A model generated the notes under the pieces. It was not told the origin of the DNA. It ran no database searches and worked only from the letters and a program-made list of their open reading frames with translations. The position numbers and the translations under genes are program-made. Positions 34,796-36,668 of a DNA stretch of 64,000 nucleotides are shown piece after piece. The stretch comes from Acidobacteriota bacterium (lineage in GTDB: Bacteria > Acidobacteriota > Blastocatellia > RBC074). Position 1 is the stretch's first letter, and the number at the start of each line of letters is the position of its first letter. Where the stretch lies: the NCBI GenBank assembly GCA_016715865.1, contig JADJXM010000001.1:417572-481571 (forward strand), written 5' to 3'.

Positions 34796-35683
34796 GTGAG
34801 CATACGCAATGCCGTCATCCCGGTTGCCGGACTTGGCACAAGGCTGCTTCCCGCGACCAAATCTCAACCTAAAGAGATGCTGCCTGTCGGCAAGAGGCCG
34901 ATCGTGCAATACATCGTCGAAGAACTGAATCTATGCGGTATCGAGCGCATTCTCTTCGTTACGGGCCGCGGTAAAACTTCGATCGAAGACCATTTCGACG
35001 ACGATCCTGATTTAATCAGGAACCTGCGCGAGACCGGAAAAGAAGACCTGCTTGAAGAGTTGCAGTACGAAAGGATAGGGATCAACTATCTCTACACCAG
35101 GCAGCGACGCCAGCGCGGGCTGGGAGACGCGGTCCTTTGCGCGGAGTCATTTGCAGGGACGGAACCGTTCGTCGTCGCCCTGGGAGATTCGATCATCGGC
35201 CGGCACAGGCCATCCGATATCGTCCGCAGATTGATCGACGCATTCGAGACCCACGATGCCGCCTGCGCCATCGCCGTCGAGGAAGTGCCGCGCGAACAGG
35301 TTTCGATGTACGGTGTCGTCAAGCCTGAATCCGATACCGATGTCTTCGTCATCTCGGACCTTGTTGAAAAGCCGGCGCCTGCCGAAGCGCCGAGCAACTG
35401 GGCAATTGCCGGCCGTTACGTTTTCGCACCGGGTCTTTTCGACGCCATCAAGCAGACAGGTTTCGACCACCGCGGCGAGATTCAGCTGACCGATGCCATC
35501 CGCCGCATGCTCAGCGATGGCCGGCGCATCGTCGGAGTCCGACTGCCGCCGACAGAGAAGCGATACGATATCGGCAACTTCGAAAGCTACTTCGAAACTT
35601 TTGTCGAATTCGCCCTGACTGATCCGGTTTATGGTGAAAAATTGCGTCAACACGTGAGGGAGCTGCTGGGTGAGAATTCATAA
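34796..35683 (+). CDS. galU: UTP--sugar-1-phosphate uridylyltransferase (GalU-like nucleotidyltransferase)
   Basis: GTG at 34796 with AGGAAA 8 nt upstream. Has the N-terminal [26 protein letters not shown] motif. Confidence 0.8.
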
Positions 35684-36668
35684 GACAAGGGCATATGCCA
35701 GAGCAGGTCTGATTGGCAACCCGTCCGACGGATATAACGGCAAGACGATCAGTCTGATCGTCAGGAATTTCAGTGCCGAGGTGGTCATCTACGAATGGCC
35801 CGAGCTCGAGATAATCCCCACGCGGCAGGACCATTGCAGATTCGAGAACCTTGAGGAGTTTCTTCACGATACCCGTCTCAACGGCTATTACGGCGGCCTG
35901 AGGCTGGTCAAGGCTTCGATCAAGCGATTCGCCGAATATTGCCTGCGGCATGACATCAAGCTGTCAGCCGAGAATTTTTCGCTCCGTTATTCTTCGAACA
36001 TCCCCCGTCAGGTCGGGCTGGCCGGTTCGAGCGCGATCGTGACCGCGACGATGCGCGGGCTCTGCTGGTTTTATAAAGTCTCGATACCCGAAGAGATACT
36101 GCCGAGCCTCATTCTTTCGGTCGAAAGAGAGGAACTTGGTATCAGCGCCGGATTGCAGGATCGCGTCTCGCAGGTCTATGAGGGACTTGTCTACATGGAT
36201 TTCGACAAGGACTTTATGAATCAACATGGCCACGGACGTTACGAGCGGCTCGATCCGGCAGTGCTTCCGCCCGTTTACATCGCCTATCAGACTGAGCTTG
36301 CAGAACCTTCCGAAATATTTCACAACGATATTCGCAAGCGATACGATAACGGAGAAGCTCTGGTCGTCAACGCCATGCGCGATTTCGCCGACCTCGCTTG
36401 GCGGGCGCGAACCTGCCTTCTGGAGGGCGATCACTCCGGTCTGGCTGAATTGATGAATCGAAATTTCGATATTCGAAGAAGCATCTATCATCTCAACCCG
36501 AGGCACGTTCGAATGATCGAAATCGCCAGGGAGGTGGGTGCATCGGCGAAATTTGCCGGCTCCGGCGGCTCGATCATCGGCACATATACTGATGAAGCGA
36601 TGTTCAATCGACTTAAGTCCGTATTCGCCGCCGAATCATGCGCTGTTATCAAACCGATTATTAATTGA
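35670..36668 (+). CDS. GHMP-family sugar-1-kinase, glucuronokinase-like
   Basis: GTG start overlaps the galU-like stop by 14 nt. Contains [48 protein letters not shown] (GHMP motif), [24 protein letters not shown] and [11 protein letters not shown]. These track the plant glucuronokinase (GlcAK) family as recalled from memory. Confidence 0.7.

Follow-up and report, generated by a model that had tools for sequence, protein, structure and literature searches.

A glucuronokinase-family gene overlaps a GalU-family gene in an acidobacterial genome: a conserved pair with a putative role in UDP-glucuronate salvage

How might a bacterium with access to free D-glucuronate convert it directly into UDP-glucuronate? 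This question is raised by a 64,000-nucleotide stretch of the genome of an Acidobacteriota bacterium of the Blastocatellia (GenBank assembly GCA_016715865.1, contig JADJXM010000001.1, positions 417,572 to 481,571 of the forward strand; the whole stretch is called the window below), in which a gene for a GHMP kinase resembling plant glucuronokinase (GlcAK) overlaps the end of a gene for a GalU-like nucleotidyltransferase, with a gene for a myo-inositol oxygenase (MIOX) elsewhere in the same DNA. UDP-glucuronate feeds exopolysaccharides, UDP-xylose and other nucleotide sugars, and to our knowledge it is generally assumed to arise in bacteria solely via UDP-glucose dehydrogenase. Here we describe the conservation of the overlapping pair across bacterial phyla and the residues that set the nucleotidyltransferase apart from canonical GalU, and we consider the two genes to be, probably, a salvage module complete in itself, by which free D-glucuronate would be turned into UDP-glucuronate. 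The elements at the core of the locus are as follows.

34796 to 35683, plus strand: GalU-family UTP:sugar-1-phosphate uridylyltransferase, 295 amino acids, of the 'UP' clade that travels with glucuronokinase; proposed glucuronate-1-phosphate uridylyltransferase (PF00483, TIGR01099 and YngB matches).
35655 to 35661, plus strand: Shine-Dalgarno-like motif of the kinase, GAGGGAG, within the 3' end of the upstream gene and 8 nucleotides before GTG 35670 (GAGGGAG-N8-GTG; sequence reading).
35670 to 36668, plus strand: glucuronokinase-family GHMP kinase, 332 amino acids (PF00288 and PF08544; GlcAK homology).

The open reading frame (ORF) of the kinase overlaps that of the nucleotidyltransferase by exactly 14 nucleotides, the upstream stop codon occupying positions 35681 to 35683. 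The ORF list and the junction sequence thereby confirm what a sequence-only reading of this DNA had reported, both for the overlap and for the positions of the two genes and of MIOX. The mechanically called ORF of the nucleotidyltransferase runs from 34637 to 35683; we adopted the GTG at 34796 as its start, because the resulting 295 amino acids fit the lengths of homologues (292-295 amino acids) and the gene then does not overlap a divergent gene starting at 34653, from which it is separated by a 142-nucleotide intergenic region. The kinase starts at GTG 35670 with a conserved N-terminus, MRIHKT. The internal Shine-Dalgarno-like motif, together with the overlap, is consistent with translational coupling of the kinase to the upstream gene.

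The Pfam matches of the kinase (PF00288, E=1.7e-11; PF08544, E=1.8e-5; both over their gathering scores) identify generic GHMP domains only, and we therefore compared the protein with individual plant and animal enzymes. An Arabidopsis thaliana reference, P0122 ('putative glucuronokinase'), was found by querying the protein database with an At3g01640 sequence, to which it proved 99% identical, and the same query also returned many named plant glucuronokinases. The animal reference, P0245, carries the source name 'glucuronokinase with putative uridyl pyrophosphorylase [Carassius carassius]', and from this name and from cyprinid taxonomy, rather than from a comparison with the zebrafish sequence, we take it to be an orthologue of the characterised zebrafish GKUP. 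The window kinase and P0122 share 46% identity over 303 amino acids (BLASTP, E=4e-91), the window kinase and the kinase domain of P0245 45% over 325 amino acids (E=1e-98), and the plant and fish enzymes 50%; in terms of identity, the bacterial kinase is almost as close to these two enzymes as they are to one another. No NCBIfam model claims it, the best being those for heptose kinase (48.6 bits), mevalonate kinase (41.7 bits) and galactokinase (18.4 bits), and the closest solved structure is a heptose kinase (E=7.5e-12). An alignment of four Blastocatellia and five plant sequences contains about 100 invariant columns, including long family-specific motifs (GNPSD.Y.G.TIS, GYYGG.RL, NF(S/T)L.Y..NIPRQ.GL.GSSAIV, GI.AGLQDRV.QVY.GL..M.F and KF.GSGG). 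Judged by these comparisons, the window protein is a member of the glucuronokinase family and neither a galactokinase nor an arabinokinase. The sequence-only reading had called it glucuronokinase-like on the strength of GlcAK motifs, all of which occur in the window protein and in actual plant GlcAK sequences alike; its proposed check against GlcAK and other GHMP clades came out in favour of GlcAK (E=4e-91, against at most 49 bits for the other GHMP models), and the kinase did not group with galactokinase or arabinokinase. From this family membership one would predict ATP-dependent phosphorylation of D-glucuronate at C1, given that both A. thaliana GlcAK (PMC2823444) and the kinase of zebrafish DrGKUP (PMC3938481) are glucuronate-specific.

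A scan of one genome per GTDB species returned at least 600 matching stretches, 597 of which were confirmed as relatives of the kinase, so that such relatives occur in at least about 600 bacterial species-representative genomes. The best 80 of these at least 600 stretches encode proteins of 54-80% identity and come from Acidobacteriota, Planctomycetota, Verrucomicrobiota (including Kiritimatiellia and Victivallales), Chloroflexota, Hydrogenedentota, Desulfobacterota and others. Close homologues (73-98% identity) are found in metagenome-assembled genomes of Blastocatellia and other Acidobacteriota, and many homologues of 73-80% identity are already labelled 'glucuronokinase' in JGI/IMG source names. 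Looking up the exact sequences of the window kinase and of the protein P0009 gave no match. Homologues of GlcAK had also been listed earlier, in 2009, from 'a few bacteria', including the acidobacterium Solibacter usitatus, Dyadobacter fermentans and Verrucomicrobium spinosum (Pieslinger et al. 2010; PMC2823444). The glucuronokinase family is not plant-specific, and its occurrence in bacteria is not new.

We used tblastn with the window proteins to survey the pair in 81 kinase loci. In 57 of the 81 loci a GalU-like gene immediately precedes the kinase in the same orientation (53-84% identity), and a more divergent one (41-46% identity) lies directly downstream in nine others (L023, L039, L045, L061, L066, L070, L073, L074 and L081), which belong to Verrucomicrobiota, Kiritimatiellia, Victivallales and Sedimentisphaerales. 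In total, a GalU-like gene abuts the kinase in 66/81 loci, which are spread over the phyla listed above; five further loci are cut by contig ends. Beyond the pair the neighbours vary: among 118 flanking ORFs of the first 38 non-Blastocatellia loci (L017-L054) we counted 160 Pfam families, none of them in more than three loci, with glucuronate isomerase in two loci and galactokinase in two. A larger conserved operon around the pair was considered and rejected on account of these heterogeneous flanks. The two functions can also be carried by one polypeptide. When P0122 was searched against 1.84 billion cluster representatives, 484 clusters matched at E<=1e-30, and long fusion proteins make up 69 of the best 150; one of these 150 representatives, the 626-amino-acid metagenomic protein P0387 (from a JGI contig of 2.2 kb), is the only one with a GalU-type N-domain, which is 44% identical to the window protein (E=2e-71) and fused to the kinase. 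The adjacency conserved across phyla, the variable surroundings and the natural fusion are strong evidence that the two proteins act in one pathway, and the coupling of the kinase to a GalU-like uridylyltransferase, as read from this one locus, is real and kept across phyla.

The partner belongs to the GalU family. Its Pfam match is to PF00483 (E=3.5e-33), with PF12804 the only other match and no UDPGP-family match, and its sequence has the conserved GalU elements (NTP_transferase fold, G-x-G-T-R, K-E, Q, GLG, the Mg-binding D and E-K). Against the TIGR01099 galU equivalog model it reaches 287.7 bits, where the cutoff is 326.8. The 57 upstream-type partners form a monophyletic group in a neighbour-joining tree, in which the nine downstream-type partners group with canonical GalU; the upstream-type proteins share a mean identity of 64% among themselves (minimum 52%), compared with about 40% to the four solved UDP-glucose pyrophosphorylases (UGPases) in the alignment. 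For a comparison of the active sites we set 67 kinase-linked proteins against seven solved UGPases: E. coli 2E3D, 6MNU, Acinetobacter 6IKX, YngB 7O2N, P. aeruginosa 8F73, and Burkholderia 5VCT and 5I1F. The E. coli GalU sequence used is identical to 2E3D. The catalytic, Mg-, phosphate- and uridine-binding residues are all invariant in the linked proteins (67/67 for A16, G17, R21, K31, E32, Q109, G114, D137, G179, E201, K202 and D265 in E. coli numbering). Fully disjoint residue sets separate the 67 linked proteins from the seven UGPases at four alignment columns only, two of which lie at or beside the bound glucose. At window S132, the position right after the Mg-binding Asp, the linked enzymes have S, T or C and the UGPases D or V; the equivalent residues YngB D134 and PaUGP D131 contact the glucose moiety, and KpUGP has V138 at this position (PMC11796359; bioRxiv 10.1101/2020.11.30.405621). 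At window A205 the linked enzymes have A, S or G and the UGPases V, I or M, and this position adjoins the backbone glucose contact made by YngB V204 and KpUGP V214 (PMC11796359; bioRxiv 10.1101/2020.11.30.405621). The canonical hexose pocket, with D or V after the Mg-binding Asp and V, I or M after the backbone glucose contact, is accordingly absent from the window protein, and the downstream-type partners and the P0387 fusion also carry small or non-canonical residues at both positions. From these residues we infer that the loss of an acidic side chain and the gain of space at the hexose site would fit room for a C6 carboxylate.

Considering that the proposed substrate of the kinase is free D-glucuronate, the question arises where it would come from. 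The genes of the window that bear on this are the following.

8666 to 9502, minus strand: myo-inositol oxygenase, 278 amino acids; a possible source of free D-glucuronate (PF05153 positions 3-249 of 249, E=3.7e-113).
7286 to 8662, minus strand: GH4 glycosidase (PF02056 and PF11975), 3 nucleotides downstream of MIOX and in the same operon.
36705 to 38414, plus strand: Amidohydro_3 protein, 569 amino acids, with a hydrophobic N-terminus (PF07969, E=9e-104).

The MIOX protein matches mouse MIOX (2HUO) with E=3e-77 and conserves the di-iron ligand motifs H..QTAE, HDLGK, WGHDEY, RYHS and FN.YDLY (pattern H/HD/H/H/D; the ligands listed for MIOX are H98, H123, D124, H194, H220 and D253), and its ATG start at 9502 agrees with that of the orthologue in locus L011. 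The gene heads an operon of its own on the minus strand, 26 kb from the pair, followed by the GH4 gene (3-nucleotide gap) and an ORF of no assigned family (4-nucleotide overlap), and the MIOX-GH4 adjacency recurs in four other loci (L105, L128, L140 and L141). The closest solved relatives of the GH4 protein are 6-phospho-beta-glucosidases (E=1e-62), and its reaction may be to free inositol or a sugar from a glycoside; a role as an alpha-glucuronidase yielding glucuronate was considered and is unsupported, with the GH4 entries annotated as alpha-galacturonidase (3FEF) or alpha-glucosidase (1VJT and 7BR4) matching at about 1e-18 as against 1e-62. MIOX and the kinase are found on one contig in five Blastocatellia-type sequences, namely the window, L011, GCA_964468345.1, GCA_018269055.1 and a contig of 9.5 Mb. 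They lie about 26 kb apart in GCA_964468345.1, with the gene order of the window, about 8.4 kb apart in GCA_018269055.1 and about 7.7 kb apart in L011. In this lineage, MIOX and the pair thus co-occur and are loosely near each other without being co-transcribed. The claim that a bona fide MIOX joins the route of the pair therefore holds in part: the enzyme is intact and co-occurs with the pair in related genomes, whereas it stands outside the operon of the pair, and its part as a supplier is our reconstruction. We propose MIOX as a source of the kinase's substrate because it makes D-glucuronate, that is, on enzymological rather than genomic grounds.

Two observations concern the surroundings of MIOX. 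Transposase-like ORFs at 5101-6407 and 9626-10652 on the plus strand flank the MIOX-GH4 cluster; Pfam supports only the one at 9626-10447 (DDE_5, E=1e-4, under the gathering score). Between MIOX and a PfkB gene lies a repeat-rich plus-strand ORF of 1736 amino acids (11488-16698), taken from its sequence to be of the RHS/YD type. The syntenic contig L140, from a metagenome-assembled genome, has only a VWA gene at that place, and for this reason this stretch looks like inserted DNA specific to the genome of the window. The Amidohydro_3 protein is a 'bridging' neighbour, adjoining the kinase in some Blastocatellia genomes and MIOX in others: its orthologue lies directly upstream of MIOX in L011 (33-1421), L103, L104, L111 and L144, and after the kinase in the window and several relatives.

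Based on these data, we propose that the GHMP kinase would phosphorylate D-glucuronate at C1 with ATP, giving glucuronate-1-phosphate, which the GalU-family enzyme would join with UTP to yield UDP-glucuronate and pyrophosphate, and that the 14-nucleotide overlap and the internal ribosome-binding site would keep both proteins co-expressed. The glucuronate could be provided by MIOX, 26 kb away, cleaving myo-inositol, or equally by imported or recycled uronic acids; we infer the substrates of both enzymes, as well as any flux from inositol. The broader proposition is that the linked GalU clade is a dedicated glucuronate-1-phosphate uridylyltransferase (EC 2.7.7.44), derived from UGPase by a few pocket changes, and that with glucuronokinase it forms a widespread salvage operon independent of UDP-glucose dehydrogenase in hundreds of species of at least six phyla, so that bacteria would largely have invented the 'plant' pathway. 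To us the chances of this proposition appear evenly balanced. No ugd gene was seen among the window ORFs scanned, a set from which the largest ORFs were left out.

Several observations weigh against the proposed salvage route. The partner overall resembles an ordinary UGPase, its best PDB match being the B. subtilis UGPase YngB (234.7 bits, E=1.2e-68), followed by Burkholderia GalUs, and its galU score falling just under the cutoff. The seven canonical UGPases of the pocket comparison all come from Proteobacteria and Firmicutes and are distant from the linked set, so that lineage effects may contribute to the disjoint columns. A second, canonical galU was not seen in the fetched locus flanks, which were the part of the genomes searched. 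About 10 of the 81 kinase loci have no adjacent nucleotidyltransferase (L026, L052, L056, L057, L063, L076, L077, L079, L080 and others). The literature searched yielded no bacterial glucuronokinase or glucuronate-1-phosphate uridylyltransferase, and no bacterial member of either group is known to be characterised; with the animal fusion enzyme, attempts to show pyrophosphorylase activity in vitro did not succeed (PMC3938481). Finally, MIOX lies within 10 kb of the kinase in only 1/81 kinase loci and never in the operon of the pair, the distance between the two genes in the 9.5-Mb contig is 2.07 Mb, and neither the kinase nor its partner was found in the available flanks of any of 57 metagenomic MIOX loci (53-80% identical). 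A physical link between MIOX and the pair as a general rule was rejected on the counts from the 81 kinase loci and the 57 MIOX loci.

These last figures bear on whether MIOX has any dedicated connection to the pair. It may instead serve inositol catabolism or, with GH4, the turnover of inositol glycosides, the pair scavenging exogenous or recycled glucuronate, and this is an alternative that we take seriously, at somewhat less than even odds. Besides the figures for the 57 MIOX loci and the genome in which the two genes lie 2 Mb apart, it is favoured by the separate MIOX operon with its recurrent GH4 gene and by the presence of the kinase pair in many phyla with no MIOX nearby. The other MIOX neighbours, which are only PQQ-like, DUF1905, zinc-ribbon and SDR proteins, are uninformative on a catabolic fate. 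What speaks for a connection is that D-glucuronate is the only product of MIOX (established enzymology; PMC2823444) and would also be the substrate of the kinase, that no uronate isomerase or uronate dehydrogenase was seen adjoining MIOX in the loci inspected, that in each of the five Blastocatellia-type cases examined both genes are on one contig, twice within about 8 kb, and that the Amidohydro_3 orthologue adjoins either one or the other.

A second alternative concerns the partner, which could be a housekeeping GalU that stands beside the kinase through their shared place in nucleotide-sugar metabolism, glucuronate-1-phosphate being handled by a side activity of GalU or by another enzyme. 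That the protein plainly belongs to the GalU family (a galU model score of 287.7 bits) and keeps every catalytic residue, that the nine downstream-type partners cluster with canonical GalU and that no second GalU-like gene was seen in the fetched flanks would all agree with this view. We nevertheless regard it as unlikely, since the upstream-type proteins of the various phyla form one clade, which has only about 40% identity to canonical GalU and falls below the curated cutoff, both linked groups and the fusion carry non-canonical residues at or beside the glucose contacts, a natural fusion to the kinase exists, and the overlap or abutment recurs in many phyla while the other neighbours vary. 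Finally, it is quite improbable that the bacterial kinase clade acts on a sugar other than glucuronate, for instance a neutral hexose or some other uronic acid, with the module then making another UDP-sugar: the literature searched yielded no assay of a bacterial member, GHMP sugar kinases can shift specificity, and a flanking context with galactokinase in two loci and glucuronate isomerase in two singles out no sugar, but identities of 46% to the plant and 45% to the fish enzyme, when the two glucuronate-specific enzymes share 50%, and about 100 columns invariant between Blastocatellia and plants, long family-specific motifs among them, argue against it.

The proposed glucuronate salvage by the pair can be set beside three known systems. 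The plant MIOX pathway (MIOX, GlcAK At3g01640 and USP; PMC2823444) would share the chemistry, from inositol through glucuronate and glucuronate-1-phosphate to UDP-glucuronate, and two of its three steps use homologous, plant-type proteins, MIOX and GlcAK, the kinase being 46% identical to that of Arabidopsis. It differs in the third enzyme, which here is a short GalU-type protein (PF00483) not homologous to USP, and in gene organization, with the kinase and pyrophosphorylase genes coupled in an operon by the 14-nucleotide overlap and MIOX unlinked. A plant USP is expected to have a UDPGP-type domain and to be much longer than a bacterial GalU, and the partner has neither property. At 295 amino acids, with PF00483 and no UDPGP-family match, it is not the plant-type UDP-sugar pyrophosphorylase that the sequence-only reading had made of it. 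Nor does the kinase step bear out the description of the route as one usual in plants, with GlcAK relatives in at least about 600 bacterial species-representative genomes and homologues noted as early as 2009 (PMC2823444).

In animal GKUP (zebrafish DrGKUP, PMC3938481; Carassius P0245) a short nucleotidyltransferase is likewise coupled to the kinase, in the same N-to-C order. Its N-domain, however, belongs to another NTP_transferase subfamily, and the coupling described here involves two genes, although the GalU-type fusion P0387 exists. We examined and rejected homology of the partner to this N-domain (BLASTP E=0.034 against Carassius GKUP), which is itself a weak and divergent NTP_transferase match. 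Because the animal domain shows no significant similarity to the window protein, the animal and bacterial couplings arose with different partners. With GalU, GtaB and YngB (TIGR01099; PDB 7O2N, 2E3D and 8F73), by contrast, the partner shares fold, family and the catalytic, Mg-, phosphate- and uridine-binding residues at about 40-46% identity, and it is distinguished from them by a score below the equivalog cutoff, by its placement in a separate clade co-travelling with the kinase, and by S/T/C and a small residue in the pocket. On the available sequences, the partner belongs to a distinct GalU clade and is neither a plant USP nor an animal GKUP N-domain. The bacterial GlcAK homologues of Pieslinger et al. 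2010 belong to the same family as the window kinase, and those reports list homologues only. We found no description of the conserved operon, the GalU-kinase fusion or the sugar-pocket substitutions in the literature searched; as far as we can see, neither the operon nor the changed pocket had been reported before. Collectively, the finding read from this DNA is real and the kinase was read correctly, the label 'plant-type' is misplaced, and the connection to MIOX is no more than plausible.

The remaining features around the pair include one further element of the divergent intergenic region.

34666 to 34694, plus strand: sigma-70-like promoter candidate TTGGCA-17-TATATT in the 142-nucleotide intergenic region (consensus scan, 10/12 matches).

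The scan that gave this candidate returned four sites in the region, where 2.2 are expected, which makes support for it weak. The Amidohydro_3 gene begins 36 nucleotides 3' of the kinase on the same strand, no terminator-like site was seen between them, and the gene is possibly co-transcribed with the pair; orthologues of 60-70% identity follow the pair in several Blastocatellia loci. On the other side, the divergent gene (33304-34653, minus strand, 449 amino acids) has no Pfam or NCBIfam match and keeps its position in many Blastocatellia loci (57-64% identity). Further downstream, at 39747-41087 on the plus strand, a GFO/IDH/MocA oxidoreductase, whose N-terminus resembles a twin-arginine signal by eye, is kept after the amidohydrolase in L013-L016 and weakly resembles the models for glycoside 3-dehydrogenase and inositol 2-dehydrogenase, at scores far under their cutoffs.

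If the proposed function is correct, it would be assigned to a large and so far uncharacterised GalU subfamily, and this clade would supply a working pyrophosphorylase, an activity that attempts with the animal fusion enzyme failed to show; the positions of S132 and A205 offer a directly testable hypothesis of its specificity. A compact bacterial pair that converts glucuronate to UDP-glucuronate would be useful for the one-pot synthesis of UDP-glucuronate, hyaluronan and glucuronides, which currently depends on the Arabidopsis kinase (PMC6888640). For the bacteria themselves, a salvage operon spread over many environmental phyla would constitute a second entry point to UDP-glucuronate and would tie the scavenging of inositol or uronic acids directly to polysaccharide synthesis.

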